From: Candidatus Omnitrophota bacterium
GTDB taxonomy: Bacteria; Omnitrophota; Gorgyraeia; Zapsychrales; Zapsychraceae
Assembly: GCA_023247445.1 (NCBI GenBank)
Contig: JAHFGL010000008.1
Location: 13,774-77,773, forward strand
DNA length: 64,000 nt
Direction: 5' to 3'
Below are positions 413 to 31,184 of the stretch, in pieces. The notes beneath the pieces are model-generated. The model worked only from the letters and a program-made list of their open reading frames with translations, was not told where the DNA came from and ran no database searches. How positions within the stretch are numbered: position 1 is the first letter of the stretch; every line of letters starts with the position of its first letter. The position numbers were made by a program, and so were the translations under genes.

Positions 413-1503
413 TTTTTATGATTGAACCCAAGGCACTTTTAAAAAAAATATCCCGAGTCTCTGGACATGGTGAGGCACGTATTGGCCGGGCTATGCGTTT
501 GGATCGCAACGAACGGACAACGCCATTAGCTAAGGATATTGTTGAAGCCGTATGGTCCCAAATTTCTCCGGAAGAAATTGTCGCTTATCCCGAACTGGAG
601 CCGCTTTATCAAAAACTGGCGCGATTTTTGAATGTTCTTCGCCAGAATATTCTTCTGTGCAGCGGTTCTGATACGGGTATTAAGAGTGTCTTTGAAACAT
701 ATGTGCAGCAAGGCGATGAAGTGGTCATTTTGACACCGAGTTATGGAATGTTTTCTGTCTATTGCGATATGTTTGGAGCCACGAAGATTCTTATGCACTA
801 CGATGAGGATTTTTTTCTGCCTGTAAAACGAATAACTGAGAAAATTAATCCCAAAACAAAGCTTGTCATATTAGCTAATCCTAACCATACCGGAACGGTT
901 ATCCAAGAGAAAGATATCCATTCCATCATCGAATACGCGGCCCAGTACAACACCCTCGTTCTGGTCGATGAGGCTTATCACCATTTTTATCCAGAGACCA
1001 TTATTTCTTATATCGGCCAATATGATAACTTAATTGTGGTCCGTAGCTTTTCTAAGGCTTTTGGCATTGCGGCGTTACGTGTAGGATATCTTATAAGTCA
1101 GACACAAAATATTCAAAATTTAGATAAAGTGCGATTGACGCACGAAATTACCAGTGTTTCGGCGAAGTTCGCGGCGTATCTTATTGATCATCCAGAAATT
1201 TATCAGGCATATGTGAAGGATGTTGAAGAGGGAAAAAGTTATATTGCCAAAGAATGTCAGAAAATAGGAATTACGGTGCTGCCATCAACGACTAATTTCT
1301 GTTTTTTTCGTCTGCCTGATTTTTGGGACGCGAAAGAAATGGTTCTTAGCTTAAAAAAACGAGATGTCCATATTAAAGGGCCGTTTCAAGAGGTTCCTCT
1401 TAATGGTCTTATACGGATTACCCTTGGTCCCGAAAAGCAGATGCGGGAATTTATGAATATTTTTAAAGAAATTTTAAAGGAGTGTCAAATTGAAGCGAAA
1501 TAA
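409..1503 (+). CDS. Class I/II PLP-dependent aminotransferase, histidinol-phosphate aminotransferase (HisC)/CobD-like
   Basis: Contains the SFSKAFGIAALRVGYLIS motif with the PLP lysine typical of HisC and threonine-phosphate decarboxylase. 364 aa. ATGA overlap with the upstream gene. Confidence 0.75.
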   Translation: MIFMIEPKALLKKISRVSGHGEARIGRAMRLDRNERTTPLAKDIVEAVWSQISPEEIVAYPELEPLYQKLARFLNVLRQNILLCSGSDTGIKSVFETYVQQGDEVVILTPSYGMFSVYCDMFGATKILMHYDEDFFLPVKRITEKINPKTKLVILANPNHTGTVIQEKDIHSIIEYAAQYNTLVLVDEAYHHFYPETIISYIGQYDNLIVVRSFSKAFGIAALRVGYLISQTQNIQNLDKVRLTHEITSVSAKFAAYLIDHPEIYQAYVKDVEEGKSYIAKECQKIGITVLPSTTNFCFFRLPDFWDAKEMVLSLKKRDVHIKGPFQEVPLNGLIRITLGPEKQMREFMNIFKEILKECQIEAK

Positions 1504-2287
1504 TTCTACCATCAAAAAAAGAACAAAAAGAATTCCAGTCCTTGGGGCTATCCCCGCCAGAATGGGTTCCAGCCGTTTTCCCGGGAAACCTCTAAAACTT
1601 ATCGCTGGAAAATCCATGATATGGCATGTTTGGCAGCGGGCTTTGTTAAGTGGTGTTCTGGATGACTTAGTAATTGCCACTTGTGATGAGGAGATTAAAA
1701 CAGCCGCTGAGGAGTTCGGGGCGAAAGTTGTAATGACCTCCGACAAACACACGCGGGCTAACGATCGGGTCGCTGAGGTCGCCAGTAAAATTCCCTGCGA
1801 AATTATTTTAAATATTCAGGGGGATGAACCATGCTTGAATCCACAATTAATCCGCGATGTGGTTAACCATATTCGTAAAAATCCGCATGTGCAATGTTCG
1901 AATCCCGTGGCGGTTATTGAAACAAAGGAAGAAAGAGAAACCCCCCATGATATTAAGGTTTGTTTTGATTTAAATGGAAGAATTGTTTATTTTTCCCGCT
2001 GTCCGGTTCCCTCAGATTCGGTCGTTGAGAGAAAATATCCTTGTTACCGGCAGATCCCTATCTTGGCATTCCGGAGTGAATTTTGTCAAAAATTGGCTAA
2101 GCTTAAACCGGGGCCCCTAGAGTTGCAGGAAGGCACCGATTTATTGCGGGCGGTTGAGCATAATTTACCGGTTCATATTTTAAAAACGAAATATCAAACC
2201 AAAGGCGTGGATATCCCTAGTGATATCCAAGAAGTGGAGAAACGCATGGAGAAAGATCCGATTTACAATCGGTATCGTTTCAAATAA
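1490..2287 (+). CDS. CMP-ulosonic acid synthetase family cytidylyltransferase (KdsB/NeuA-like, CTP_transf_3)
   Basis: N-terminus IPVLGAIPARMGSSRFPGKPL matches the KdsB/NeuA signature (IIPAR..S.RlPgKpL). 265 aa. Confidence 0.75.
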   Translation: MKRNNSTIKKRTKRIPVLGAIPARMGSSRFPGKPLKLIAGKSMIWHVWQRALLSGVLDDLVIATCDEEIKTAAEEFGAKVVMTSDKHTRANDRVAEVASKIPCEIILNIQGDEPCLNPQLIRDVVNHIRKNPHVQCSNPVAVIETKEERETPHDIKVCFDLNGRIVYFSRCPVPSDSVVERKYPCYRQIPILAFRSEFCQKLAKLKPGPLELQEGTDLLRAVEHNLPVHILKTKYQTKGVDIPSDIQEVEKRMEKDPIYNRYRFK

Positions 2288-2306
2288 CCATCAAGAGAGA
2301 TTACAA

Positions 2307-3407
2307 ATGAAAAAGAATATTAAAGTGGCGATTATTGGGTGCGGGCGGGTTTCTTTCCATCATGCAGAGATGCTGCGTGATGTATCCGAGGTTAAAGTAG
2401 TGGCCTGCTGCGATTTAATTAAAGAAAAAGTCGAGAAATTAGCTGGTGAACTTAACTGCCGGGCTTATCTTAATTATCATGAGATGTTGCAGGAAGAGGA
2501 AGTTGATCTTGTGACATTAGCCACACCCACTGGCGTCCATTTTGAGCATGTTCAAGATATATTAAACCATTATAAAGTGAATATCCTTTTGGAAAAACCG
2601 ATGGTTCTTAAAGTCTCGGATGGACTTGAATTAAAACGTTTAGCTGTTCAAAAAGAAGTACGGATATTTCCTGTCTATCAAAATCGTTTAAATAAGTCGG
2701 TTCAAAGAGTTAAAAGTGCCCTTTTGAATGGAGAACTGGGGGATATTGTATTGGGAACAGTAAGGGTTAGATGGTGCCGGCCCCAAAGGTATTATGATCT
2801 GGCCGCTTGGCGGGGAACGTATTCGATGGACGGCGGAGCGTATGTCAATCAGGGAATCCATTTTATTGATATTTTGAGATATTTGGCTGGAGAAATTCAA
2901 GCAGTGAACTCTTGTTTCGCTCGGCTTGGAGCTAAGCCTGAGGCTGAAGATACAGGGGTAAGTTTGCTTCGTTTTGAAAACGGCGCTTTAGGTCAATTAG
3001 AAATAACGATGGCCGCGCGTCCTCATGATTATGAAGCTTCTATTTCCATCGTTGGAAGTAAAGGATTGGCTGTTTTGGGAGGATGGTGCGCGAATAAGTT
3101 ATTGACGTTTTCTCCAAACCCGGAGGATGAACAGATTTTTAGTGAAGAAGTGCCCATGGCTTATGGATTTGGACACCGCGAGGTTTATCGTAGAGTCGCG
3201 AAGGTTTTATTAGAAGAAAATAATCCGCCAGTTGAATTTGAAGATGGGCTGAACACAATACGTTTACTGCACGCTCTTTACCGCAGTAACGAGGAACAAA
3301 AATGGATTAAGTTAGCCGATCAACTGGAATCGTTTCGTTTGGGGGAGCGCAATGAAAAGCTTTTAACCCCTTATCTAATCAAACCTCCACTGGTAAGTAC
3401 TAAATAG
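2307..3407 (+). CDS. Gfo/Idh/MocA family NAD(P)-dependent oxidoreductase
   Basis: N-terminal Rossmann KVAIIGCGRVSFHHAEML, a conserved EKP motif and ~365 aa. Start ATG 2307 with an AAGAGAG RBS. The track ORF extends upstream to 2220, inside the previous gene. Confidence 0.75.
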   Translation: MKKNIKVAIIGCGRVSFHHAEMLRDVSEVKVVACCDLIKEKVEKLAGELNCRAYLNYHEMLQEEEVDLVTLATPTGVHFEHVQDILNHYKVNILLEKPMVLKVSDGLELKRLAVQKEVRIFPVYQNRLNKSVQRVKSALLNGELGDIVLGTVRVRWCRPQRYYDLAAWRGTYSMDGGAYVNQGIHFIDILRYLAGEIQAVNSCFARLGAKPEAEDTGVSLLRFENGALGQLEITMAARPHDYEASISIVGSKGLAVLGGWCANKLLTFSPNPEDEQIFSEEVPMAYGFGHREVYRRVAKVLLEENNPPVEFEDGLNTIRLLHALYRSNEEQKWIKLADQLESFRLGERNEKLLTPYLIKPPLVSTK

Positions 3408-3413
3408 GAAAGC

Positions 3414-4472
3414 ATGGTATCCACAGATGAAAAATTAAAAGTCGGAATCGCCGGATATGGCGTTGTCGGTAAAAGAAGAAGACAATTTATCGATCAAAAT
3501 CTCCATATGAAGACTATCGCGGTATGCGATAAAACGCTGCGTAAATCAGATCTTTTTATCAATGGCGTTAAATGTTGTCGTCATTATAAAGAGCTTCTTA
3601 AAACTCCCTTGGATGTTTTATTTGTGTGTCTGCCTAATTATTTAGCCGCGGAGGTGACGATGGCGGGGTTAGAGAAGGGACTGCATGTCTTTTGTGAAAA
3701 GCCACCGGGACGAAGTGTTGCGGATATCGAAAAAGTTATTGAAGCCGAAAAAAAATATCCAAAGTTGAAATTGAAATACGGTTTTAATCATCGTTATCAT
3801 GATTCGGTGAAAGAAGCTTTAAGGATTATTCAGTCCAAAGAATTCGGCGAGATTATCAACATCAGGGGTGTTTATGGAAAAAGTAAAATCATTTCTTTTG
3901 CCAGTGGATGGCGCGCTAAACGCAAATACGCCGGCGGTGGGATACTCTTAGATCAAGGTATTCATATGGTGGATTTGATGCAGTTATTCTGTGGGAAATT
4001 TGTTGAGGTTAAAAGTTATGTTTCAAATAGCTATTGGCACCACGATGTCGAAGATAATGTTTACGCCATTTTGCGTGATAAGAACAATCGTATTGCTATG
4101 CTTCACTCGAGCGCCACACAATGGCAGCATCAGTTTTCTTTAGATATTACTTTAACCAAAGGATCTCTAAGGCTGCAAGGGATTCTTTCCGGCTCTAAAA
4201 GCTATGGACAAGAACAGCTCGTTAAGGTCCGCCGCAGTGAGGCGGATATCGGCACGCAAAGTGAAGAGGTCATTAATTATCTAAACGACAATTCCTGGCG
4301 GGATGAAGTCAATGAATTTGCCGATAGCATCGTTAATGATAAGCCTACCTATGCGGGAACAATCTTTGATGCCCTTTCCACTATGCAGTTAGTGTACAAA
4401 ATCTATAGCGCCGATGCCGAGTGGAAAGAGAAATTTCTCAAAGAAGATTCCGCTAAGATTTTAACAGTTTAG
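3414..4472 (+). CDS. Gfo/Idh/MocA family oxidoreductase
   Basis: KVGIAGYGVVGKRR Rossmann, CEKP motif, 352 aa. Confidence 0.7.
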   Translation: MVSTDEKLKVGIAGYGVVGKRRRQFIDQNLHMKTIAVCDKTLRKSDLFINGVKCCRHYKELLKTPLDVLFVCLPNYLAAEVTMAGLEKGLHVFCEKPPGRSVADIEKVIEAEKKYPKLKLKYGFNHRYHDSVKEALRIIQSKEFGEIINIRGVYGKSKIISFASGWRAKRKYAGGGILLDQGIHMVDLMQLFCGKFVEVKSYVSNSYWHHDVEDNVYAILRDKNNRIAMLHSSATQWQHQFSLDITLTKGSLRLQGILSGSKSYGQEQLVKVRRSEADIGTQSEEVINYLNDNSWRDEVNEFADSIVNDKPTYAGTIFDALSTMQLVYKIYSADAEWKEKFLKEDSAKILTV

Positions 4473-4486
4473 AAATAGGAGACACT

Positions 4487-5107
4487 ATGAATACATTAGA
4501 AGAAATTTTTAGAGAGAGCAGTCTGCAGACAGATTATTTCAAACGGTATTGTCATTATCTGCAAAAATTGATTTCTGAGATTGATGTTGAATCGGTTAAA
4601 AAAGTTGTGGATTGTTTTCTGGAAGCTCGATGTAATAACAAAACAATTTATTTCGCTGGTAATGGCGGCAGCGCGGCAACGGCCTCGCATTTTGCTCAGG
4701 ACATGGGGGAGATTGGAAGAAAAATCCGCGGCAAAGGCTTCCGAACGCAGAGTATCAATGATAATGTCGCCGCGCTAACGGCTATCAGCAATGACTACAG
4801 CTACGATAGTATTTTCTCTATGCAGATCCAATACAACTTTGACGAAAAGGACATTTTAGTTGTTATTTCAGCCAGCGGCAACAGTCCGAATGTCATTAAT
4901 GCCGTCAATCTGGCTAAAGCTAAAGGCGGAATAACAGTTTGTTTGGTGGGATTTGATGGTGGTCGTTTAGCCCAAATTTGCGACCAGGTCATTCATATCC
5001 AAAGCAAAAAAGGAGAATACGGTCCCGTGGAAGATATTCACCTTATTTTAAACCATATGATTGTTTCCTACTTGATGATGGAATTAAAAAAAGAGAGTGT
5101 GTCTTGA
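4487..5107 (+). CDS. gmhA: SIS-domain sedoheptulose-7-phosphate isomerase (GmhA family)
   Basis: GNGGSAATASHFAQD, ISASGNSPNVINA and VGFDGGRLA align motif-by-motif with E. coli GmhA. 206 aa. Confidence 0.75.
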   Translation: MNTLEEIFRESSLQTDYFKRYCHYLQKLISEIDVESVKKVVDCFLEARCNNKTIYFAGNGGSAATASHFAQDMGEIGRKIRGKGFRTQSINDNVAALTAISNDYSYDSIFSMQIQYNFDEKDILVVISASGNSPNVINAVNLAKAKGGITVCLVGFDGGRLAQICDQVIHIQSKKGEYGPVEDIHLILNHMIVSYLMMELKKESVS

Positions 5108-6030
5108 AACACAAAGTTCTTATATCGACATCAACTTTTGGAGTATCCGATGACACGCCTTTAAAACGGCTTGCCCAAGCGGGATTGGAGGCCAACATTA
5201 ATCCCTACAAGCGTAAACTTTCTAAAGAAGAATTGCTAAATTTGTTGCCTGAGGTGACAGGATTAATCGCGGGCCTGGAAACATTAGATGAGGAAGTAAT
5301 GTCCCGGTCGGATTTAAAAGTTATCTCGCGTTGCGGGTCAGGATTGTCCAATATTGACATGCGGGCCGCAGAGAGATTAGGCATTAAAGTATGTAGCACA
5401 CCGCGGGCGCCGACGCAAGCGGTAGCGGAATTAACAATCGCCTGTCTGTTAAATTTATTGCGAGGAGTTTCCACCATGGATCAGGATTTACATCAAGGCC
5501 GTTGGAATAAACAGACCGGATTGCAATTAGAGGGCAAGACTATTTTGATCGTAGGCTGGGGCAGGATCGGACGGCGTGTGGCTGAATTGTTAAGACCGTT
5601 TCATGTGCGGATTATCGTTGTGGATCCATTTGTGCAAAACATTACCAAGCAGTTTGAATTTTTAACGCTGGCTCAGGGTTTACCTTTAGCGGATGTTATT
5701 ACCCTGCACTGCAGCGGTGAAGATTGTTTTTTTTCCGCTGGCGAGTTTGCTTTGATGAAAAAAGGAGCGTTTCTTTTGAACGCGGCCCGGGGAGGATTAA
5801 TTGACGAAAAAGCGTTAATAAAAGCCATTGATGAAAGACTTGTTGCCGGAGCTTGGTTGGATACTTTTGAACAAGAACCTTATGTGGGAGAATTAATGCG
5901 TTATCATCAGGTCCTTTTGACGCCTCATGTAGGATCTTACACCGAAGAATGCCGAAGGCAAATGGAGTTAGAGGCGGTTGAGAATCTTATTTTTGCTTTT
6001 GAAGAAATAGAAAGTCGATGTCAGATATAG
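5104..6030 (+). CDS. D-isomer-specific 2-hydroxyacid dehydrogenase (phosphoglycerate/erythronate-4-P dehydrogenase-like)
   Basis: NAD-binding motif GKTILIVGWGRIGRRVAELL plus a catalytic-domain R/E/H pattern. Probable TTG start at 5104 after an AAAAAGAGAG RBS. The track ORF start at 4978 overlaps gmhA. Confidence 0.7.
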   Translation: MKHKVLISTSTFGVSDDTPLKRLAQAGLEANINPYKRKLSKEELLNLLPEVTGLIAGLETLDEEVMSRSDLKVISRCGSGLSNIDMRAAERLGIKVCSTPRAPTQAVAELTIACLLNLLRGVSTMDQDLHQGRWNKQTGLQLEGKTILIVGWGRIGRRVAELLRPFHVRIIVVDPFVQNITKQFEFLTLAQGLPLADVITLHCSGEDCFFSAGEFALMKKGAFLLNAARGGLIDEKALIKAIDERLVAGAWLDTFEQEPYVGELMRYHQVLLTPHVGSYTEECRRQMELEAVENLIFAFEEIESRCQI

Positions 6031-6764
6031 ATCTGCTGGAAAATTTAGATATCGCTAAAGTAGCGGCTAAGACAGCTGGACAATTTCTCATCAAGCAACA
6101 GCATTTGGCTCGACGTGTGTCTCAGGAACTCTTTCATGATGTGAAAATCAACGGAGACGTTGAGGCCGAGCAGATCATCCTGGAATATTTAAGGAGGCGC
6201 AGTAATTTTGCCATATTATCAGAAGAAACAGCTTCGCCAGATAAAGGGAATCAAGATTATCGTTGGATTGTTGATCCCATTGATGGGACTTTAAATTATT
6301 TTCAAAAGATTCCATTTTGTTGTGTTTCTATTGGTCTTTGGCAAGGGCAGAAGCCAATTTTAGGAGCCGTTTACGATTTTAATAGAGATGAACTATTCTC
6401 AGGAATCGCTGATGAGAAGGCATGGCTTAATGATGTTTTTGTGAAAGTGAGCAAAACCAAAACCAAAGAAAAAGCGGTTCTCTGTACAGGCTTTCCGGCT
6501 CTCACAGACTATTCTCAGGATGCTATACAAAATTTTGTCAAACAAATACAGAATTATAGAAAGATCCGTCTTTTGGGTTCCGCAGCTTTATCCATTGCGT
6601 ATGTCGCCTCAGGGAAGGTAGATGCTTATTGTGAGCGTGGTATTATGCTTTGGGATATCGCCGGTGGGATTCCTTTGTTGTTGGGCGCTGGTGGAAAAGT
6701 TCACATGGAAAAAGCAACCGAAGATAACAGTTTCAATGTTTATATCAGCAATGGATACATCTAA
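6018..6764 (+). CDS. Inositol monophosphatase family phosphatase (SuhB/CysQ/HisN-like)
   Basis: WIVDPIDGTLNY metal-binding motif. 248 aa. Confidence 0.7.
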   Translation: MSDIDLLENLDIAKVAAKTAGQFLIKQQHLARRVSQELFHDVKINGDVEAEQIILEYLRRRSNFAILSEETASPDKGNQDYRWIVDPIDGTLNYFQKIPFCCVSIGLWQGQKPILGAVYDFNRDELFSGIADEKAWLNDVFVKVSKTKTKEKAVLCTGFPALTDYSQDAIQNFVKQIQNYRKIRLLGSAALSIAYVASGKVDAYCERGIMLWDIAGGIPLLLGAGGKVHMEKATEDNSFNVYISNGYI

Positions 6765-6798
6765 TCCGATGTGAAGCAGAAAGTCATGGGTCATAACT

Positions 6799-7893
6799 AT
6801 GCCAGATTATTGTGAGTATTCTTTTTCTGCCGATTTTGTAAATCGGCTGCGTAAGTACGTAACATCAAGGGAATACCAAGATGTTGCAACTTATTCAAAA
6901 AGCGAATACTGGCAGCATTTTTCCGATGTTATTGACATTCGTTTCCTTGATAACAAGGTCATGTTAAAGGGGGAGTCAGGCTTTTATATCCCACAAAGAA
7001 AAGATGTGCAGAAGAGAGTCAAAAGAAATGTGACTAAGCTCATTCGGGAACCTTTGAGTTTAATACCATTTTTAAGAAGGAAAATTGGAATGCAGACATC
7101 AGAGATAAAATTATTAAATTATTTTGATGCTTTTGATAAAGTGATGGGCCACGATCGTGTTGCCAATATCGTCCTATCTCCCAATCGAATTAATTTCAAG
7201 GAATTGGCACAAAAACCGGGAATAATTTCTTCTGTTGATGATATGCGCCAGCAATTTTTTGCAAAAGACAAGTACAGTTTAAATGCTCAGATAGTTGAAG
7301 CTTATTATTATTACAACCTGTTGTCTGGTTTTCTAGACCCGACTTCAATTAAAACAGCATTGGAGATAGGTGGGGGAAACGGTAACCTGGCGTCATTATT
7401 TTATAGTTCAATGGATAATTGTACCATCATAAATGTAGATTTGCCCAAGACGCTTTGTCTGGCCATTGTGTTTATCGCAGATTTATTCCCGCAGGCAAAA
7501 ATGCTGTTGCCTCATGAAGAGCGTTCACAAGATTTGAATCATTACGATTTTATTTTTCTTACACCAAAGCAAATTTATATGATCGAGGATAACACCATTG
7601 ACTTGGCGATTAATACCGATTCATTTCAAGAAATGCCTCATCGGCAGATTAGTGAATATTTTAAGTTAATTCAAAGATGTTGTAAGAAGAATGCCTATTT
7701 CTTTACTTCTAATAGAGTAGAAAAGATTCCTTGTGGGCCCAATAATCAGCAAGAAACTTCTGAAACGCCCACCCGCTTTTCAGACTATCCATGGGATTCA
7801 GCCAATGAAGTGTTGGTTTACGAAATATGTAGACTAAAGAGGTTAGTTCAATTAGATGATGTGTTTATTCGTCTGGAGAGAGTAAAAAAATAA
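6799..7893 (+). CDS. Putative SAM-dependent (sugar O-)methyltransferase
   Basis: LEIGGGNGNLA looks like glycine-rich motif I of class I methyltransferases, followed by acidic INVDL. Otherwise unrecognised. 364 aa. Confidence 0.4.
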   Translation: MPDYCEYSFSADFVNRLRKYVTSREYQDVATYSKSEYWQHFSDVIDIRFLDNKVMLKGESGFYIPQRKDVQKRVKRNVTKLIREPLSLIPFLRRKIGMQTSEIKLLNYFDAFDKVMGHDRVANIVLSPNRINFKELAQKPGIISSVDDMRQQFFAKDKYSLNAQIVEAYYYYNLLSGFLDPTSIKTALEIGGGNGNLASLFYSSMDNCTIINVDLPKTLCLAIVFIADLFPQAKMLLPHEERSQDLNHYDFIFLTPKQIYMIEDNTIDLAINTDSFQEMPHRQISEYFKLIQRCCKKNAYFFTSNRVEKIPCGPNNQQETSETPTRFSDYPWDSANEVLVYEICRLKRLVQLDDVFIRLERVKK

Positions 7894-7935
7894 TTTTGTT
7901 GGATCTAGAACATCATATTGTAAAAGTTTACTTAT

Positions 7936-9891
7936 ATGTCTGTTGTGGAAAACAAAGGAGAACATAAAATTTTATGGGTATGCTGGGAGAAACCGGATAT
8001 TTCTCCAACGGCCGATATGGTGGCTTTAAGCTTTCTTAAACCCAGCGTTGAAGACGGGTTAAAGGGGCAATGGTCAGTTCCTTTGATTTCAGCGCGAGAA
8101 GTTGTTTCCGAGGTTAAAGAAAAAGCCTTAAATTTGTATATCGATATCATTGCCCAAATAGGCATCGTATCTTTAAATGGCATGACATTTCGCAAAGCTT
8201 TGTGTGGCAGTGATGAAGTGAGTTCTTGGTGGTTTCATAAAGCAGCCTGTAAGGATTGTGAAAGCGAACCGACATTTAATCAGATCATTCAGATTCTAAC
8301 TATTCAGCGGATTGCTCAGGAATATCAATGCACGGACATTATTCTTTGCGGCGGGCCATATGAAATCGCACAGGTTTTAAGCAATATGTTTCCCATAAAG
8401 ATTTTAAATTGTAAAAAGCAATCTTTATTATTTCTCTGCGGATTTTCACTGCTTCGCCGGTTTAAGTTCGTTCTGAAATTTTTATACGAGTGGATGTGTC
8501 TTAAGCGCTGTGTTTGTATTCCCGAGAATAGTATAGATATATTATTTTCCGGTTTCTGGGATTGGAGTGTCAAGGAAAATCCTTTAACGGCTAAACTCGA
8601 AGATCGGTATTTTCGGGCCGTCCCGGAAAAATTGCATAACCAGGGTATGCGGCTTGGTTGGTTAACATGGTTTTATAATAATTATGAAACGAATAAACCG
8701 CGACGATCCATTTTTAAGGTTATCGAACCTTTGGCGAAACATTCCCGCATTATCATCGCCCAATGTTTCTTAAGCATAGGGGAGATTTTTCGATCGGTGA
8801 CGCGGTTTAAGCCGTTCTTTACTTTTCTAAGGTATCAGCACCAGGAAGCGTTCAAAAATATTTTTAAACGGAACGGTTTAAATTTTTATCCGCTCCTCAA
8901 GAAATGGCTGTATGCCGGGTTTTTAGATGGGACACTTCCTTATCATGAATTAATTTGTTTGGCTCATAGAAAGGCAGTTCAAAAATATCAGCCTAAGGCC
9001 GTTGTGAGTTTTCTTAATTTTTTCCCGTATGCCCGTGCGTTGTGTGCCGGTGTCAAAAAAGGGTGTCCTTCATGTGCGGTGTATGATATGCAGCACGCGA
9101 GCTATGCATGGGAAGATACTATTGGAAGGCTCGATAGCCGTTGGGAATTCGATGGCATCCCGGATGGATGCTCAATACCGCATGCGGATTACATGTTTGT
9201 GATGGGGGAATTAGGCAGGGATATTTTTATGAAAAGCGGGTTTTCGGACAAACAAATACTATTGACAGGGTCATCCCGTTATGACGAGGCATCTTCGGTG
9301 GATGTGAATAATGGCCGAGACCGCAAATTTGGGAAAAATATTCTTATCGTGGCCGCGCTCAATAAGGAATTGGAGTTGGAGATGGTCGATTGTGTCTATA
9401 TGGTATTTTCTCAATTTCCCGATGTGTCAATTCATCTGCGTTCCCATCCTTTTTCTGATATCCGCTCAGCCATTCAGGCTCAACGATACGGGGACAAAAT
9501 TCATGTTACTTCTGGCACGGCACTCCATGAAGATTTGTCCCATGCCGATATCGTTATTTTTTCATATTCCACGGTTGCGGAAGAAGCTTTTATTCAAGGT
9601 GTTCCGGTTTGGCAGTGGATTTCCACGGGATATAATGCCTCGGCCTTTAGAGATATTAAAGTAGCTCCTGTTTTTTCTTCCGTTAAAGGACTTATTCAGT
9701 TGTATAAACAGTTTTTAAAAGATCCTCAACAGTTTATTCCGACTGTTGAACAGCGACAATTGGTCAAGAAAAAGTGTTTTTATATTAGAGAGGATGGTCT
9801 TCCTTCGGATAATATTGTAGAAGCCTTGGTTTTACAGTGTGGAATAGGAAAGGATCGCAATATTCCCGAACAAAAGGTGACGGTGGGATGA
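7936..9891 (+). CDS. Hypothetical protein with a TagF/KpsS-like GT-B C-terminal domain (possible CDP-alditol or CMP-sugar transferase)
   Basis: 651 aa. The C-terminal HADIVIFSYSTVAEEAFIQGVPVW parallels the TagF 'ADILITDYSSVFFDF...KPIIFY' motif. Confidence 0.35.
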   Translation: MSVVENKGEHKILWVCWEKPDISPTADMVALSFLKPSVEDGLKGQWSVPLISAREVVSEVKEKALNLYIDIIAQIGIVSLNGMTFRKALCGSDEVSSWWFHKAACKDCESEPTFNQIIQILTIQRIAQEYQCTDIILCGGPYEIAQVLSNMFPIKILNCKKQSLLFLCGFSLLRRFKFVLKFLYEWMCLKRCVCIPENSIDILFSGFWDWSVKENPLTAKLEDRYFRAVPEKLHNQGMRLGWLTWFYNNYETNKPRRSIFKVIEPLAKHSRIIIAQCFLSIGEIFRSVTRFKPFFTFLRYQHQEAFKNIFKRNGLNFYPLLKKWLYAGFLDGTLPYHELICLAHRKAVQKYQPKAVVSFLNFFPYARALCAGVKKGCPSCAVYDMQHASYAWEDTIGRLDSRWEFDGIPDGCSIPHADYMFVMGELGRDIFMKSGFSDKQILLTGSSRYDEASSVDVNNGRDRKFGKNILIVAALNKELELEMVDCVYMVFSQFPDVSIHLRSHPFSDIRSAIQAQRYGDKIHVTSGTALHEDLSHADIVIFSYSTVAEEAFIQGVPVWQWISTGYNASAFRDIKVAPVFSSVKGLIQLYKQFLKDPQQFIPTVEQRQLVKKKCFYIREDGLPSDNIVEALVLQCGIGKDRNIPEQKVTVG

Positions 9892-10985
9892 TGCAGAAAG
9901 CAAATGTTCTCATAACCGGTGGTGCAGGATTTATTGCCAGTCATTTGGTTGATCTTTTGGTTTCCCAGGGTCATACGGTTAGCATCATCGATAATTTTTC
10001 GACCGGAAGAAGAGAGAATCTCCTTCACCAAGAAGGTCAAGTGCATATCCTTGAAGCGGACATTACTGATTTCAATGCGATTTTCTCTTATTTTGCCGGT
10101 AAAGATATCGTTTTTCATCTGGCGGCTTTAGCCGATATTGTGCCATCTATCGTCAATCCGCGAGGGTATTATGCCTCGAATGTCATGGGAACGATGAATG
10201 TTGTTGAGGCGGCGCGGTTATGTGGTATTAAAAAAGTTGTATATGCGGCTTCATCATCCTGTTATGGTATCCCTACGGAAGAATTTTATCCCACTTCGGA
10301 AAAGGCGCCGAGTAGTCCGCAGTATCCCTATGCGTTGACGAAATATCTGGGTGAAAAAACTCTTCTTCATTGGGGAAAGGTTTATGATTTGGCGGTTATT
10401 TCTCTTCGGTTATTTAATGTGTATGGACCAAGATCAAGGACTTCAGGAACTTATGGTGCGGTTTTTGGCGTTTTTCTGGCGCAAAAATTGGATGGTAAGC
10501 CTTATACAGTTGTCGGCGATGGCAATCAGACCAGAGATTTTGTTTATGTTACGGATGTTGCCGAAGCATTTACCGTGGCCGCTTTTTCGAACGTCAAAAA
10601 TGAAATTTTCAACGTTGGAACGGGTGATCCGCAAAGTATTAATAAATTAGTCGCTCTTTTGGGAGGCAAAAAGGTTAATATTCCCAAACGTCCCGGAGAG
10701 CCCGACTGCACCTGGGCCGATATTCATAAAATTAAATCCATGTTAGGATGGCAGCCAAAGGTTTCTTTTGAAGAAGGCGTTGGAAAAATTTTGGAGCACA
10801 TTGATTATTGGAAGGAAGCTCCCGTTTGGACACCGGAAACAATTGAAAAGGCCACCGAAGAGTGGTTTAAATATTTGAATGGCCGGGAATTATCGACCAT
10901 TCATCCCGAGAAGCGAAGCGATGAGGGATCTACGCTTCGCGATCCTTTGCCATCCGGGCTTCAGGATGAACGCTTGGGTAAGTAA
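9888..10985 (+). CDS. NAD-dependent sugar-nucleotide epimerase/dehydratase (extended SDR)
   Basis: VLITGGAGFIASHLV Rossmann and YxxxK region. ATGATG start with ATGA overlap onto the upstream stop. Confidence 0.8.
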   Translation: MMQKANVLITGGAGFIASHLVDLLVSQGHTVSIIDNFSTGRRENLLHQEGQVHILEADITDFNAIFSYFAGKDIVFHLAALADIVPSIVNPRGYYASNVMGTMNVVEAARLCGIKKVVYAASSSCYGIPTEEFYPTSEKAPSSPQYPYALTKYLGEKTLLHWGKVYDLAVISLRLFNVYGPRSRTSGTYGAVFGVFLAQKLDGKPYTVVGDGNQTRDFVYVTDVAEAFTVAAFSNVKNEIFNVGTGDPQSINKLVALLGGKKVNIPKRPGEPDCTWADIHKIKSMLGWQPKVSFEEGVGKILEHIDYWKEAPVWTPETIEKATEEWFKYLNGRELSTIHPEKRSDEGSTLRDPLPSGLQDERLGK

Positions 10986-11014
10986 GTCTAATCCCGAGTG
11001 TTCAAAGGACTAAA

Positions 11015-12547
11015 ATGAATAACGGAATTCTAAAAAAAATACAATCACCAGAGAGATTGGCTAAAATCGTTGATGACCTCAAGAAAAAAGGGAAAAAGAT
11101 TGTTCTCTGTCATGGTGTGTTTGACATCGTTCATTTAGGACACATACGACATTTTAATCAAGCCAAACAAAACGGAGACATTCTTATCACCTCATTGACT
11201 AAGGATAAGTATGTCAAACGCGGGCCAGGACGTCCGTTCTTTAATGAGCGTCTGCGGGCTGAGACCTTGGCTTCGCTCGCTATGACCGATTATGTATCCA
11301 TGGTGGATTCACCGACCGCTGTGGATTTTATCAAAAAGGTTAAGCCTAATGTTTATGCCAAAGGCCCTGATTACAAAGCAAAGAATAAAGACGTCACGGG
11401 TAAAATATTTGATGAAGAAGATGCTATTGAAGCGGTGGGAGGAAGGCTTGTCTTTACCGATGATATCACATTCAGTTCCTCAAAACTCTTAAATGATTAT
11501 CTGGATGCGTATCCCGCGCGCACCGTTAAATACTTAAAGGCCATAAATAAGCGTTACACAATTGGCCAGATCGTTGAATCAATCGAGGCGTTAAAAAAAA
11601 TAAAAGTATTGGTGATTGGAGATGCCATCATCGACGAATATCATTACTGTTTCCCATTAGGCAAGTCATCCAAGGAGCATTTGGTTGTTAACCGTTACGA
11701 ATCGAAGGAAATGTTTGCCGGCGGTAGTTTGGCAACGGCTAATAACGCGGCGAGTGTCTGTGGTCAGGTAGATTTAGTGACGGTCCTGGGAAAAAAGAAA
11801 TCCTGCCAGGGCTTTATTGAAAATCATTTGAGTCTGAACGTCAGACCTAAATTTTTTTACCGCTTGGATACAGGAACAATCGTAAAAAGAAGATATGTCA
11901 GTAAGATACAAAATAGGAAGCTTTTTGAAATATGTTATATTAAAGATACGGATATTATTCAGAGCGAAGAAGATAAAATCATTGACCATCTTAAAAAAGT
12001 AATCAAAAATTATGACGTTGTGATCGTTTCCGATTATGGACATGGGTTTCTAACCAAGCGCATACGGGATTTAATTTGCTCCAAGGCCAGATATCTCGCC
12101 TTGAATGTTCAGACTAACAGCGCCAACATTGGATTTAATCTAGTGACAAAATACCCCAGGGCGGATTGCGTGTGCATTGATGAGTTAGAGTTGCGTTATG
12201 CCACTCACGAACGTTTTAGTGATCTGCGGGCGCATGCTAAGAAAGTGTATCAGCAGCTTAGATGCGAACATATCATCGCCACGCGCGGTTCATACGGGTC
12301 TTTGTGTTATTCGGTAAAAAATGGTTTTCATGAAACACCGGCCTTCTCCAGTCGTGTGGTAGACCCTATTGGGGCGGGGGATGCTTTTTTTGCTTTTATC
12401 GCCCCGTGTTTTGCCACCGGGATGCCGCAGGAATTGGTATCCTTTATCGGCAACGCCGTCGGTTCGCTGGCGGTGCAGATTGTTTGCAACCGCGAACCCG
12501 TAAAATCAGTGGATCTTATAAAGTTTATTACAAGATTATTAAAATGA
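11015..12547 (+). CDS. Bifunctional heptose-phosphate kinase/heptose-1-P nucleotidyltransferase, HldE(RfaE)-like with reversed domain order
   Basis: N-terminus LCHGVFDIVHLGHIRHF matches the HIGH-motif nucleotidyltransferase domain II of HldE. The C-terminal 330 aa is a PfkB-family carbohydrate kinase (VLVIGDAIIDEY...DPIGAGDAF). 510 aa. Confidence 0.7.
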   Translation: MNNGILKKIQSPERLAKIVDDLKKKGKKIVLCHGVFDIVHLGHIRHFNQAKQNGDILITSLTKDKYVKRGPGRPFFNERLRAETLASLAMTDYVSMVDSPTAVDFIKKVKPNVYAKGPDYKAKNKDVTGKIFDEEDAIEAVGGRLVFTDDITFSSSKLLNDYLDAYPARTVKYLKAINKRYTIGQIVESIEALKKIKVLVIGDAIIDEYHYCFPLGKSSKEHLVVNRYESKEMFAGGSLATANNAASVCGQVDLVTVLGKKKSCQGFIENHLSLNVRPKFFYRLDTGTIVKRRYVSKIQNRKLFEICYIKDTDIIQSEEDKIIDHLKKVIKNYDVVIVSDYGHGFLTKRIRDLICSKARYLALNVQTNSANIGFNLVTKYPRADCVCIDELELRYATHERFSDLRAHAKKVYQQLRCEHIIATRGSYGSLCYSVKNGFHETPAFSSRVVDPIGAGDAFFAFIAPCFATGMPQELVSFIGNAVGSLAVQIVCNREPVKSVDLIKFITRLLK

Positions 12548-12560
12548 AAGGTATCTCCCT

Positions 12561-13586
12561 ATGCGTAAATTGAATTCTGTTTTTGTGACCGGTGGGGCGG
12601 GATATGTCGGCGCCGTGCTGGTCCCGAAGTTATTAAAGAAAGGATACAAGGTTAAAGTTTTGGATTTATACACGTATGGGCTGGATGTCTTTGACGGTAT
12701 CGAGGATAAATCCAATCTTGAGGAAATTAAGGGGGATATTTGCGATGTAGATTTGTTGCAAAAAAGCCTGCGCGGTTGTGATAGTGTCATTCATTTGGCT
12801 TGTATTTCCAATGATCCGAGTTTTGAACTGAATCCCACGTTAAGCCGTAAAGTAAATTATGAAGCCTTTGAGCCGCTGGTACGTATCAGTAAAGAAAGCG
12901 GCGTGCGGCGTTTTATCTACGCTTCCACATGTAGTGTATACGGATTAAGTGATGCGGAAAATGTCACTGAGGATCATCCGCTGGTTCCTATCACGGATTA
13001 CAATAAATACAAAGGGTTATGTGAGCCTATCCTTTTTAAATACCAATCGCCGGAATTTACCGCTGTGACTATCCGGCCGGCCACTGTCTGCGGTTATTCT
13101 CCGCGGCAGCGATTTGACCTCACGGTCAACATTTTAACAAACCATGCGTATAACAACAATCATATCCTTGTCTTCGGCGGCAGTCAGGAGCGCCCGAATC
13201 TGCATATTGAAGATATGACGGATCTTTATGGCCTACTTCTGGAATTACCCGATGAAAAAATCGCCGGCAAGACCTACAACGCGGGTTATCAAAACCGCTC
13301 CGTTGCCGATATCGCTGAGATCGTTCGGCGTGTCATGGCCGAAGAATTGCCCGAGCGGCCCAAGATTACAGTTGAAACAAGACCTTCAGATGATATCCGC
13401 TCTTACCGCATTTCTTCAGAGAAGATAAAACGTGAATTAAATTTTGTCCCGCGGCACACAATTGAAGACGCGGTGCGGGATCTGATTAAAGCATTTAAGG
13501 CCGGTAAGTTTCAAGATTCCCTAAACAATATCCGGTATTTTAATATTAAAACGCTCAAATCAACGGAACCCCAATGCGCTGTCTAA
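12561..13586 (+). CDS. NAD-dependent epimerase/dehydratase (SDR)
   Basis: VFVTGGAGYVGAVLV. 341 aa. Confidence 0.75.
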   Translation: MRKLNSVFVTGGAGYVGAVLVPKLLKKGYKVKVLDLYTYGLDVFDGIEDKSNLEEIKGDICDVDLLQKSLRGCDSVIHLACISNDPSFELNPTLSRKVNYEAFEPLVRISKESGVRRFIYASTCSVYGLSDAENVTEDHPLVPITDYNKYKGLCEPILFKYQSPEFTAVTIRPATVCGYSPRQRFDLTVNILTNHAYNNNHILVFGGSQERPNLHIEDMTDLYGLLLELPDEKIAGKTYNAGYQNRSVADIAEIVRRVMAEELPERPKITVETRPSDDIRSYRISSEKIKRELNFVPRHTIEDAVRDLIKAFKAGKFQDSLNNIRYFNIKTLKSTEPQCAV

Positions 13587-14689
13587 TGAATATTCCTTAC
13601 GTGGATTTGGCCGAACAGCATACTTCCATTAAAGACGAATTACTAAACGCTGTGGCCAAAGTTTTAGATCATGGAAAATTTATTTTAGGAGAAGAGGTCG
13701 CCGAATTTGAAGAGCGTTTTGCTCAATTATGCGGCGTACAATATGCGGTGGGACTTAATTCGGGGACAGATGCGCTCATTTTAGCTTTACGGGCGCTTGG
13801 CATCGGTTCCGGGGATGAGGTCATTACGGCGGCCAATTCGTTTGTTTCTTCGGCAAGTTGCATTGTGTGTGCGGGTGCCAAGCCCATTTTTGTGGATGTC
13901 GGTGAAGATTATTTGATGGATCCCGCCTTAATTGAAAAAACGATCACGTCCAAGACAAAAGCGTTGTTGCCAGTCCATTGGACAGGTCGTCCGGGGGATA
14001 TGGAGGCTATTAAGACAATTGCTAAAAAATATAAATTAGCCGTCATTGAAGATTGTGCGCAGGCGGTAAATGCCGAGTATCAGGGACAAAAGGTTGGTTC
14101 ATTCGGCGATGCGGGCTGTTTTAGTCTGCATCCCCTTAAGACACTTAATGCCTGCGGCGATGGGGGAGTGCTTACAACTAACCGCCATGATCTTTATGAG
14201 AAAATATTGACGCTGCGGGATAATGGATTTTACCGGCGCAATGAGTGTGTTTCTTGGAGCAATAATTCCCGTCTTGATACAATTCAGGCGGCGATGTTAC
14301 TTGTCAAATTAAATTATCTGGAAAAATGGACGGAGCAACGGCGAAAGAATGCCCGCTTTTATCAACAGCATCTCAAGGATATATCCGGAATACAGTTGCC
14401 GCCTGAAGAAAAAGATATGCGCGCTGTTTATCATACGCTTATCATTCAGGCCGACCGCCGGGATGAATTACAGGCATTTCTCACCGAGCAGGGGATTGGG
14501 ACTAAGGTTCACTACGCTGTACCGATTCATCTGCAGCCGGTGGCTAAAGAATTGGGATATAAAGTGGGAAGCCTGCCAGTGACTGAGCGTCAGGCGGCCA
14601 GGGTTTTGAGTCTGCCGGTTTCTCAATCGTTGCAGCCGGAAATGCTGGAATATGTTGTTAATGCCATACGAGAATTCTACAAAAAATAA
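13574..14689 (+). CDS. DegT/DnrJ/EryC1/StrS family PLP-dependent sugar aminotransferase
   Basis: Typical family architecture with conserved Lys region (SFGDAGCFSLHPLKTL). 371 aa. Confidence 0.8.
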   Translation: MRCLMNIPYVDLAEQHTSIKDELLNAVAKVLDHGKFILGEEVAEFEERFAQLCGVQYAVGLNSGTDALILALRALGIGSGDEVITAANSFVSSASCIVCAGAKPIFVDVGEDYLMDPALIEKTITSKTKALLPVHWTGRPGDMEAIKTIAKKYKLAVIEDCAQAVNAEYQGQKVGSFGDAGCFSLHPLKTLNACGDGGVLTTNRHDLYEKILTLRDNGFYRRNECVSWSNNSRLDTIQAAMLLVKLNYLEKWTEQRRKNARFYQQHLKDISGIQLPPEEKDMRAVYHTLIIQADRRDELQAFLTEQGIGTKVHYAVPIHLQPVAKELGYKVGSLPVTERQAARVLSLPVSQSLQPEMLEYVVNAIREFYKK

Positions 14690-14697
14690 GGGAAATT

Positions 14698-15846
14698 ATG
14701 AACGTACCCTACTCTTATCTTGATGAACAGTTTGCTCAAATTGACGATTACCTTCAGGATGTCCGTAGATTGGTGCAAAGCGGCGATTTTACCTTGGGTC
14801 AAGCGGTGATGGAGTTTGAAGAACGTTTCGCCAAATTGTGCGGTTTGCCATATGCTATTGGTGTCGGGTCCGGTACGGATGCGCTTATCCTCTCTTTAAA
14901 AATTTTAGGGATCGGGCCTGGGGATGAAGTGATTACAACACCCAATACGTTTATCTCAACGGTGGGCGCTATCGCGATGACCGGAGCCCGTCCGGTTTTT
15001 GTCGATAACAATGACGAATACACCATTGATGTCAATCAAATTGAAAAGGCCATTACCTCGAAAACAAAGGCGATCTTGCCTGTGCATTTAACGGGCTGTC
15101 CAGCGGATATGCCGCGGATTATGGACACAGCCAAGAAGCATAAATTGCTTGTCGTGGAAGATGCCGCGCAGGCGATTCTTGCCAAAATCAACGGTAAACA
15201 CGTGGGTTCATGGGGTAAGACGGCCTGCTTTAGTCTGCACCCGCTAAAAAATTTAAATGTTTGGGGGGATGGCGGTGTCATCGTTACGCGTTCGGCTGAG
15301 CTGTGCCGGAAGTTAAAATTATTCCGTAACCATGGGATGACGACTCGCGATGAGATCGAGATGTTTTCACACAATTCTCGCCTGGATTCACTGCAGGCCG
15401 TGATTGGCAATCGGTTGATTAATGAGGTGGAGGATATCACTCAAAAACGCATCGCCAACGCCCGGCAATATGATGAAGCGTTCAAGGATATGAAAGAGTA
15501 CATCACTATTCCTCAACGGTATCCCAGCATTCAGCAGGTTTACCATACCTATGTGCTGCGGGTGAAGAACCGTGACGCGCTTTTGAATCATCTGATTGAA
15601 CGCGGAATTAAGGTCAAAATTCATTATCCCATTCCCGTGCATCTGCAGAAAGCGGCCTCGTATCTGGGTTATAAAAAAGGTGATTTCCCCGTTTGTGAGA
15701 AAGATTCTCAGGCGATTATTAGTTTGCCCGTACATCAGCATCTGACAGCTCAGCAAATAAATTATGTGATTGATTGCGCGCGGGAGTTTTACATTAAGCA
15801 CGACACTAGGAGAACCGCGGACAATGCGTTGTATACTCGGGGTTGA
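14698..15846 (+). CDS. DegT/DnrJ/EryC1/StrS family sugar aminotransferase (tandem paralogue)
   Basis: SWGKTACFSLHPLKNL. About 40% identical to the previous ORF by eye. 382 aa. Confidence 0.8.
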   Translation: MNVPYSYLDEQFAQIDDYLQDVRRLVQSGDFTLGQAVMEFEERFAKLCGLPYAIGVGSGTDALILSLKILGIGPGDEVITTPNTFISTVGAIAMTGARPVFVDNNDEYTIDVNQIEKAITSKTKAILPVHLTGCPADMPRIMDTAKKHKLLVVEDAAQAILAKINGKHVGSWGKTACFSLHPLKNLNVWGDGGVIVTRSAELCRKLKLFRNHGMTTRDEIEMFSHNSRLDSLQAVIGNRLINEVEDITQKRIANARQYDEAFKDMKEYITIPQRYPSIQQVYHTYVLRVKNRDALLNHLIERGIKVKIHYPIPVHLQKAASYLGYKKGDFPVCEKDSQAIISLPVHQHLTAQQINYVIDCAREFYIKHDTRRTADNALYTRG

Positions 15847-19299: not shown

Positions 19300-19312
19300 C
19301 AAGGGGGGAACG

Positions 19313-29801: not shown

Positions 29802-29811
29802 AAAAAGTTAA

Positions 29812-30312: not shown

Positions 30313-30321
30313 GAGGAGACC

Positions 30322-31170: not shown

Positions 31171-31184
31171 CTTAGAGATTTAAG

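Follow-up and report, generated by a model that had tools for sequence, protein, structure and literature searches.

Gene content and layout of the locus

The stretch of DNA analyzed here (the window: 64,000 nucleotides of contig JAHFGL010000008.1 of a Candidatus Omnitrophota bacterium, with coordinates counted from its first letter) carries a gene for a 510-aa protein that joins, in reverse order, the two domain families of Escherichia coli HldE (RfaE), that is, a nucleotidyltransferase (NT) followed by a PfkB-type kinase. It also carries a gene for a GmhA-like isomerase of the SIS family. Judging from the sequences, it is fairly probable that both belong to a conserved cassette for a sugar nucleotide, which would begin in the manner of the ADP-heptose pathway but with differently built enzymes. 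The window has a GC content of about 0.41 and a positive GC skew throughout, the cumulative skew rising monotonically over the 64 kb. All 57 listed long open reading frames (ORFs) lie on the plus strand, forming an unusually long co-directional block, and according to Pfam nearly all the genes code for sugar-nucleotide or glycan enzymes. The proteins most similar to the 510-aa protein are encoded in metagenome-assembled genomes (MAGs) of Candidatus Omnitrophota and in two MAGs labelled 'uncultured Planctomycetales'.

The genes relevant to the argument are the following.

4487–5107, plus strand: GmhA-like SIS isomerase of a variant subfamily, 206 aa, ATG start (Pfam SIS_2, NCBIfam, PDB)
9888–10985, plus strand: GalE-like extended short-chain dehydrogenase/reductase (SDR) of epimerase type, directly upstream of the fusion gene (Pfam Epimerase)
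11015–12547, plus strand: reverse-order HldE-like fusion, 510 aa, ATG start (Pfam, NCBIfam, PDB, Foldseek)
12561–13586, plus strand: extended SDR nearest to PDB 6vo6/6vo8, candidate NDP-heptose C4 dehydrogenase (PDB sequence match)
13574–14689, plus strand: DegT/PseC-type sugar aminotransferase (Pfam DegT_DnrJ_EryC1, E 8e-115; NCBIfam PseC 268 bits, below cut-off)
14698–15846, plus strand: second DegT/PseC-type sugar aminotransferase (Pfam, E 1.6e-104; NCBIfam PseC 244 bits, below cut-off)
15824–16474, plus strand: HAD-like protein with all HAD catalytic motifs, candidate non-orthologous 7-phosphatase (motif conservation)
16446–17537, plus strand: APH-family (protein-kinase-like) small-molecule kinase (Pfam APH, E 7e-10)
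17528–18334, plus strand: N-terminal subunit of a split transketolase, binding thiamine diphosphate (ThDP) (Pfam Transketolase_N; NCBIfam transketolase 265 bits)
18334–19299, plus strand: C-terminal subunit of the split transketolase (Pfam Transket_pyr and Transketolase_C)
19277–20386, plus strand: radical S-adenosylmethionine (SAM)/SPASM enzyme, recurrent cassette member (Pfam Radical_SAM and SPASM)
22497–23750, plus strand: TIGR04372-family glycosyltransferase (NCBIfam 218 bits, cut-off 45)

The ORF listed for the GalE-like SDR begins with GTG at 9837, the Met codon at 9888 being the likely start; the Met codon at 15824 of the HAD-like protein lies within an ORF spanning 15770–16474. The genes from 9888 to 20386 are on one strand, overlapping or spaced by at most 29 bp. 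To delimit the cassette, 88 related loci were collected, and the neighbors of the fusion gene were scored by tblastn and by unbiased ORF clustering. By this comparison, the conserved cassette extends from 9888 to about 20386. The first-pass annotation had taken positions 4487–12547 as one unit, which could not be maintained: approximately 5107–9891 is an insertion, and the conserved partners continue downstream to about 20386. The comparison marks this insertion as lineage-specific, common only to the window and locus L009. It codes for a dehydrogenase like phosphoglycerate dehydrogenase (PGDH), an inositol monophosphatase-family protein (IMPase, 6018–6764), a NanM-type O-methyltransferase and a 651-aa TIGR04326-like protein, and in tblastn these genes had no counterparts near the fusion gene in related loci other than L009.

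The reverse-order fusion protein

In the 510-aa protein, Pfam recognized CTP_transf_like (PF01467) at aa 32–123 (E 5.8e-13) followed by PfkB (PF00294) at aa 197–488 (E 2.2e-20). The full extent of the domains is about aa 18–165 for the NT (nt 11066–11509) and about aa 189–489 for the kinase (nt 11579–12481), with a two-helix linker between them. In BLASTP against HldE of E. coli K-12 (taken from NC_000913.3), aa 9–123 of the window protein paired with HldE 322–438 (33% identity), and aa 189–487 with HldE 4–295 (23% identity). Since the alignment of the two halves is crossed, the domain order is opposite to that of E. coli HldE. The isomerase and fusion ORFs put forward in the first-pass annotation both exist, and its statement that the NT and PfkB domains are swapped was borne out by Pfam and by the crossed alignment, at E-values well outside the range of chance.

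The best-matching families of both domains are those of HldE. The kinase domain scored 128 bits with the HldE domain I model (TIGR02198; equivalog cut-off 345) versus 37 bits with ribokinase, and the NT domain 104 bits with the HldE domain II model (TIGR02199; equivalog cut-off 181.5) versus 34 bits with TagD, while the full-length HldE model NF008454 gave 177 bits against a cut-off of 521. The kinase is hence closer to the HldE type than to the ribokinase that the first-pass annotation had named as the outcome contrary to its proposal. The PDB sequence search retrieved Burkholderia HldA (E 8e-16) and, as the top match for the NT domain, HldC (5x9q, E 8e-11). An AlphaFold2 model of the protein (mean pLDDT, the predicted local distance difference test score, 78.8) was compared with the PDB by Foldseek. 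The top seven matches were all B. cenocepacia HldA (E 1e-21 to 1e-19), followed in rank by a ribokinase (E 1.5e-16). The nearest solved structures for the two domains are thus Burkholderia HldA and HldC (PDB 4e84 and 5x9q), which are separate polypeptides, unlike the fused domains of the window; the identity to HldA is 21–23% in the Foldseek alignment.

The motifs conserved in the family are HGVFD..H.GH (HGVFDIVHLGH, aa 33–43 of the window protein), GPGRP, TFSS(S/T), GG (within FAGGS) and GAGD (within GAGDAF). The residues invariant in both family alignments are H33, G34, H40, G42, H43, F153, S154, S155, G236, G237, G453, A454, G455 and D456. The HldE catalytic motifs HxGH, GG and GAGD (with the catalytic Asp) are therefore present, and the STT-type motif occurs in a variant form, TFSS(S/T) instead of the GCSTT of E. 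coli. In this motif, the position called 'R5' for the enzyme types in the summary of Tang et al. is an invariant Phe in the window family.

Over 5,000 relatives were returned by a word-indexed search with the 510-aa protein, and the best 120 of them (68–99% identity) all have PF01467 followed by PF00294 in their precomputed architectures. A HMMER scan of 1.84 billion cluster representatives (50% identity) gave 1,286 matches at E ≤ 1e-30. For the best 150 of these, with identities down to 32%, the N-to-C order of the alignment is invariably that of the query, which is covered for the most part by a single stretch in 139 cases and by two stretches in 11, and Pfam bore out the NT-then-kinase order in the first and the last of the 150. 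Two relatives are larger natural fusions according to Pfam and NCBIfam: P0125 (699 aa) consists of a GmhB-like HAD-IIIA domain, NT and PfkB, and P0151 (764 aa) of NT, PfkB and a GmhA-like SIS domain. The database names are generic, such as 'PfkB family carbohydrate kinase' or 'rfaE bifunctional protein...', and our literature search found no paper on a reversed NT-kinase fusion. As seen from these searches, the reversed fusions constitute a large, uncharacterized family, in which the two activities of HldE were apparently joined in a fusion event of its own, the other way round.

Tang et al. distinguished NDP-heptose enzyme types with a mono-domain NT, kinase/NT and isomerase/kinase/NT (as summarized in PMC11573728). 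These share with the present family the isomerase/kinase/phosphatase/nucleotidyltransferase logic and a wide spread beyond the classical Proteobacteria; the NT-kinase order, GmhB-NT-kinase (P0125) and NT-kinase-SIS (P0151) are not among the types listed in the summary of that work.

The GmhA-like isomerase and its linkage to the fusion gene

The SIS protein at 4487–5107 matched Pfam SIS_2 (E 3e-18). The first-pass annotation had called it GmhA-like, with DiaA as the alternative, and this assignment held: among NCBIfam models, those of GmhA ranked first (109 bits, cut-off 209–276) versus 69 bits for DiaA, and in the PDB, GmhA of B. pseudomallei ranked first (95 bits) versus 66 bits for DiaA. 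With canonical GmhA (E. coli, B. pseudomallei, N. gonorrhoeae) it shares the SIS_2 fold, about 34% identity, the serine cluster and the zinc histidines. In N. gonorrhoeae numbering, the zinc of GmhA is held by His61, Glu65 and His183 from one subunit together with Gln175 from the adjacent subunit (PMC5387315); the corresponding residues of the E. coli enzyme are H61, E65, H180 and Q172. In the window protein, these positions read H/D/E/H, not H/E/Q/H, and the same two exchanges, Glu65 to Asp and Gln172 to Glu, set the whole cassette-linked SIS subfamily apart from canonical GmhA; the score of the window protein is also under the equivalog cut-off. The window protein and 53 cassette-linked SIS proteins retain the NGGS loop, the serines that bind phosphate and both zinc histidines; the equivalents of N52, G53, S55, D94, S119, S121 and S124 are kept in the window protein and in at least 51 of the 53 homologues. 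As all four residues of the altered site can ligate metal, it is probably still a metal site.

Concerning gene linkage, three subsets of the 88 loci were considered according to the length of their flanks: in 71 loci the sequence continues for at least 700 bp past the fusion gene, in 37 it continues for at least 5 kb downstream, and in 23 there are at least 5 kb on both sides. A GmhA-like SIS gene starts within 150 bp after the stop codon of the fusion gene in 45 of the 71 loci. Among the 23 well-flanked loci, the SIS gene is present in 20, an adjacent SDR gene in 21 and, within 6 kb, a ThDP enzyme in 19. In L036 and L038, the gene immediately upstream of the fusion gene is a canonical gmhB (38–41% identity to the E. 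coli protein), and the product of the gene in L038 reaches 178.7 bits with the GmhB equivalog model (cut-off 178). This linkage, the adjacent gmhB genes and the natural fusions P0125 and P0151 tie the reversed enzyme to an isomerase and a 7-phosphatase, as in the ADP-heptose scheme.

The window itself departs from the common arrangement. Its sole SIS gene is 5.9 kb from the fusion gene, and the product is only 33–35% identical to the SIS proteins that follow the fusion gene in most loci. Orthologues of 80–85% identity were found in the closest clade of the window: L013 and L014 have the gene immediately before the fusion gene, L011 and L027 have it 2.7 kb upstream, and L009, where the arrangement is syntenic with the window, has it 6.3 kb upstream. 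That the SIS gene of the window is unrelated to the fusion was considered and ruled out, in view of the orthologues adjoining the fusion gene in L013 and L014 and of the variant active-site signature, which the window protein shares. The comparison marks the window SIS protein as the true partner of the fusion, displaced from it.

The missing phosphatase

No canonical GmhB was found in the window by tblastn with the E. coli protein as the query (E ≤ 1e-3), in agreement with the first-pass annotation, which had suggested two substitutes. One of them, the IMPase at 6018–6764, was rejected: none of the 23 well-flanked loci has an IMPase homologue next to the fusion gene, and the insertion that contains it is common only to the window and L009. 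The homologues of the 2-hydroxyacid dehydrogenase and of KdsB were also absent from the vicinity of the fusion gene in these 23 loci. The other, the HAD-like protein at 15824, was upheld in part. It has the motif DFDNT, and the DxDxT, S/T, K and DD positions of HAD enzymes are invariant in 13 homologues; the gene was seen in 13 of the 88 loci, usually with a transketolase, and 6 of these belong to the 23 that are well flanked. On the other side, the protein matched no family in Pfam, NCBIfam or PDB, and its role as the 7-phosphatase is put forward as a candidate function. A further HAD protein of the window (166 aa, at 29812) belongs to Hydrolase_3, is KdsC-like and adjoins a NeuB gene, and is not of the GmhB type. 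The cassette would thereby be an example of the recruitment of non-orthologous phosphatases.

The APH-family kinase encoded next to the HAD-like protein was found in 12 loci, always paired with the HAD gene, and its catalytic D..N and DFE positions are invariant. A PDB profile search with this protein gave nothing useful, and no solved structure matched it; neither of the two proteins had a curated-family match, beyond Pfam APH for the kinase. The block formed by the HAD gene, the APH kinase gene and the split transketolase genes (15824–19299 in the window) was also observed in L001, L002, L003, L006, L010, L011, L014, L020, L027 and L035; in L006, which is alphaproteobacterial, it is upstream instead of downstream of the fusion gene.

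The scarcity of phosphatases bears on an alternative in which a sugar or polyol is not activated at an anomeric carbon: the kinase would form a terminal phosphate ester, the NT domain would couple it to CMP, in the style of CDP-glycerol or CDP-ribitol, and a phosphatase would be unneeded. The absence of a nearby phosphatase from most loci agrees with this, as does the membership of the NT domain in the cytidylyltransferase superfamily, which includes TagD and ECT. However, HldC-type models gave about three times the TagD score (104 versus 34 bits), and the coupling to a GmhA-type isomerase and the fusion or adjacency to GmhB-type phosphatases would be left unexplained, so that we hold this alternative to be highly improbable.

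Tailoring enzymes of the cassette

The neighbors of the fusion gene are recurrently SDRs, aminotransferases, ThDP enzymes, radical SAM enzymes, methyltransferases and family 2 glycosyltransferases (GT2). Two types of SDR are involved. The GalE-like type occurs in 58 of the 88 loci, and the median distance from its start to the fusion gene downstream is 1050 bp. The window representative has UDP-glucose 4-epimerases as its top PDB matches (193 bits), contains the motifs ASSSCYG and YALTK, and lacks the Asp-Glu dyad of dehydratases. The second type, represented by the SDR at 12561–13586, occurs in 42 of the 88 loci, usually right behind the SIS gene. Its best PDB match was 6vo6 (147 bits, 33% identity), the next one reaching 105 bits. 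This entry is presumably the GDP-heptose C4 dehydrogenase Cj1427 of Campylobacter jejuni. Cj1427 starts the tailoring of capsular heptose in that organism (PMC10680097).

The oxidation of NDP-heptose at C4 by an extended SDR, followed by tailoring, is the logic of the C. jejuni capsular pathway (PMC10680097), and a similar logic is proposed for the cassette. The C. jejuni pathway also comprises epimerases and reductases. There are differences as well: in C. jejuni, a GHMP kinase (HddA) and a GDP-transferase (HddC) make the alpha-anomer, unlike in the window cassette, and no ThDP enzyme, radical SAM enzyme or aminotransferase takes part. The heptosamine of septacidin is made by oxidation and then transamination (PMC9978623), an order reminiscent of the SDR gene of the window being followed by two DegT aminotransferase genes. 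DegT genes were found in 20 of the 88 loci. Radical SAM homologues were found in 21, commonly situated between the genes for the SIS protein and the ThDP enzyme. In addition, genes for B12-radical SAM enzymes recur in 10 related loci, and three B12-binding radical SAM enzymes are encoded in the window outside the cassette (26599–28644, 40812–42392 and 51135–52769).

A ThDP enzyme is present in 33 of the 37 loci with at least 5 kb downstream. In the window it is a split transketolase. Its C-terminal subunit has the split transketolase of C. hydrogenoformans as its top PDB match (201 bits), and its N-terminal subunit keeps the catalytic His, Asp and Asn positions. The equivalents of His461 and Asp469 of the E. 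coli enzyme are changed and those of Arg358 and Arg520 are kept, the alignment of split transketolases being uncertain at these positions. The type of ThDP enzyme differs among loci: out of 43, 24 have a transketolase and 19 have alpha and beta subunits of the pyruvate dehydrogenase E1 type (PDH-E1). The SIS gene is about equally frequent with both (20/24 and 16/19, respectively), and the order SIS, radical SAM enzyme, ThDP enzyme recurs with both. The HAD gene, for its part, was seen in 10 of the 24 transketolase-type loci versus 1 of the 19 E1-type loci. One Elusimicrobia-labelled locus (L007:14745–20442) has PDH-E1 alpha/beta instead of transketolase and, besides, an acetolactate-synthase-like ThDP enzyme (TPP_enzyme_N/M/C), presumably of the same family as the sugar-branching YerE.

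A role of the transketolase in merely supplying sedoheptulose 7-phosphate is weakened, because PDH-E1 types replace it in 19 of 43 loci within the same gene order; such a supply would account for the loci with a transketolase and not for those with E1. As an alternative, a nucleotide-bound keto-heptose may receive a two-carbon unit from either type, which would fit the interchangeability of the ThDP types and the adjacent candidate C4 dehydrogenase. ThDP-dependent branching of keto-sugar nucleotides by two carbons is carried out by YerE, in the formation of yersiniose, and by the PDH-E1-like AviB1/AviB2, and the cassette similarly encodes a ThDP enzyme beside a sugar-nucleotide oxidoreductase. 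An action of the cassette ThDP enzyme on an NDP-heptose would be predicted by analogy, and we know of no transketolase-type enzyme that performs such a branching. The window contains a second split transketolase far from the heptose genes (N-terminal subunit 43128–43940, C-terminal subunit 43937–44899), flanked by a CTP_transf_3 cytidylyltransferase (42409–43131) and a GT2 (44896–45618); this glycan cluster thus makes repeated use of enzymes of the transketolase type.

The recurrence of the ThDP enzyme can also be read differently, with the transketolase acting before the isomerase to build a longer ketose phosphate, e.g. octulose 8-phosphate from hexose 6-phosphate; through the variant isomerase, the kinase, a phosphatase and the nucleotidyltransferase, this would end as an NDP-octose or another non-heptose product. 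Such a route would parallel the lincosamide route LmbR/N/P/K/O. It would account for the ThDP enzyme in 33 of 37 loci, and it fits the fact that the window enzyme is of the bona fide split-transketolase type, with the equivalents of the phosphate-binding Arg358 and Arg520 kept; a changed substrate would also be compatible with the altered metal ligands of the SIS protein and with family scores below threshold. Against it, 19 of 43 loci have the PDH-E1 type and not a transketolase, with the SIS gene equally frequent (16/19 versus 20/24). A pyruvate-type donor would yield a 1-deoxyketose, which an aldose-ketose isomerase could not use. Furthermore, the canonical gmhB genes and fusions indicate a heptose bisphosphate, and 6vo6, presumably a heptose-specific dehydrogenase, ranks first among the PDB matches for the downstream SDR. 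A sugar other than heptose is, in our opinion, quite unlikely.

Destination of the product and other glycan genes

The first-pass annotation noted the lack of a family 9 glycosyltransferase (GT9) of the heptosyltransferase kind. For the window this was confirmed: no GT9 domain (PF01075) was found by Pfam among the ORFs of at least 150 aa, and nothing was found by tblastn with WaaC and WaaF at E ≤ 1. GT9-like genes are near the fusion gene in only one of the 88 related loci, L040, which has three of them (L040:4483–7629), 2.4–5.5 kb upstream and on the opposite strand. The latter arrangement is a hint that the reversed enzyme may, in certain lineages, supply transferases of the ADP-heptose type. 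The context in the window consists of GT2, GT4 and TIGR04372 glycosyltransferases, a Wzy-like protein, an ABC exporter and NeuB genes.

The question is whether the 510-aa protein could be the housekeeping HldE, making ADP-heptose for the inner core of lipopolysaccharide (LPS), with its position in an O-antigen-like cluster being incidental. Omnitrophota are diderm, no HldE of canonical order was seen in the related loci, the reversed-fusion family is very common in these phyla, and L040 has the GT9-like genes just mentioned. Nevertheless, GT9 is found in neither the 64-kb window nor 87 of the 88 related loci; the fusion gene is consistently located among tailoring enzymes typical of variable surface glycans, and its neighborhood differs between lineages, unlike a core-LPS locus. 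A housekeeping role seems to us very unlikely. Given the absence of GT9 from the window and the variable surface-glycan context, which also sets the fusion apart from E. coli HldE, a surface glycan other than the LPS core is the likelier target. The earlier suggestion of a glycan destination is then plausible from the window context, its proof being a matter for the rest of the genome.

A possible, weakly linked candidate for the transferase that would use the product is the TIGR04372-family glycosyltransferase at 22497–23750; a homologue in L004 is 36% identical.

Other genes of the window point to further sugars and substituents. A sub-block at 409–7893 codes for a HisC-like aminotransferase, a KdsB-like cytidylyltransferase (242 bits, cut-off 193), two GFO/IDH/MocA oxidoreductases, the PGDH-like 2-hydroxyacid dehydrogenase, the IMPase/HisN-like phosphatase and the NanM-type O-methyltransferase; by analogy with SerA/SerC/SerB, its dehydrogenase, aminotransferase and phosphatase may make an amino-acid-like or amino-alcohol substituent. 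A set of genes of the nonulosonic-acid type spans 25515–31874, with NeuB at 25515–26630 (containing a SAF domain) and at 30322–31170, UDP-GlcNAc 2-epimerase at 28644–29801, the KdsC-like HAD at 29812–30312 and a cytidylyltransferase at 31185–31874. There are also genes for a carbamoyltransferase (33827–35650), a DUF4915 protein (45569–46789) and a sulfotransferase-like protein (46801–47727), and three ORFs of 393–627 aa without a Pfam match (36512–37693, 37695–39578 and 62426–63886).

Proposed pathway and its significance

From the domain content and order, best-match families and gene linkage observed, we infer the substrates, the nucleotide and the order of tailoring in the following scheme. 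The variant GmhA-type isomerase (4487–5107) would convert sedoheptulose 7-phosphate to heptose 7-phosphate; the C-terminal PfkB domain of the 510-aa protein would then phosphorylate O-1; the 7-phosphate would be removed, in the window probably by the HAD-like protein at 15824 and elsewhere by a canonical or fused GmhB; and the N-terminal NT domain would form the NDP-heptose. At this stage, the 6vo6-like SDR would probably oxidize C4 and the GalE-like SDR epimerize the sugar, with the two DegT aminotransferases, the split transketolase and the radical SAM enzyme as further members of the cassette. The product would go to a surface glycan and not to a GT9-built LPS core.

Several observations weigh against assigning this scheme to a heptose without reservation. 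The scores of the fusion family are far under the NCBI equivalog cut-offs (128 versus 345 and 104 versus 181.5 bits), its kinase domain is merely 23% identical to that of E. coli HldE, and the nucleotide/sugar region of this domain reads NVQTNSAN where HldE has LIDPKG. The SIS protein is also below the lowest GmhA cut-off (109 versus 209 bits), and the zinc-ligand changes are systematic, Glu65 being Asp in 52 and Gln172 being Glu in 49 of the 53 cassette-linked proteins; such a change could mean a different substrate or a different stereochemistry of the product. To this are added the missing family match of the HAD-like protein, the absence of a nearby phosphatase from most loci and the presumptive identity of 6vo6. 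Because all the scores are below equivalog cut-offs, the proteins are to be taken as divergent relatives rather than certified orthologues: on sequence grounds the fusion is a divergent HldE relative, not a proven HldE. It is chiefly because of the changed zinc ligands that the identity of the sugar is unproven. The cassette thus resembles the GmhA/HldE/GmhB pathway, with strict membership failing on domain order, equivalog scores and two zinc ligands. It can be said that, of the heptose-nucleotide pathway of the first-pass annotation, the pairing of fusion and isomerase was strengthened by the comparative linkage, and the heptose reading is well supported, though indirectly, while the sugar and the nucleotide (ADP, CDP or another) stay as proposals based on sub-cut-off matches.

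A more specific picture can be drawn, which we regard as rather unlikely as a whole. In it, the reverse NT-kinase and the Asp/Glu-variant GmhA would define a widespread NDP-heptose pathway of uncultivated phyla, in which C4 oxidation by the Cj1427-like SDR, two-carbon addition by interchangeable ThDP types, and tailoring by radical SAM enzymes, aminotransferases and methyltransferases would give a novel sort of heptose derivative with nine carbons, its chain either branched or extended. Our literature search found nothing on transketolase in heptose or O-antigen clusters. If this picture were true and the NT domain used CTP, CDP-heptose would gain a physiological role.

Bacteria build NDP-heptoses into their envelope, and ALPK1 senses these compounds as agonists of innate immunity. 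According to the authors of the recent survey of heptose-nucleotide enzymes, conserved neighboring genes may give hints of the physiological roles of such enzymes (PMC11573728). In the present case, a variant isomerase, an SDR resembling heptose dehydrogenase and a ThDP enzyme are firmly linked to the reversed fusion, which provides a concrete enzyme set. The prediction that it conveys is that Omnitrophota and their neighbors would carry on their surface a modified heptose as yet undescribed.

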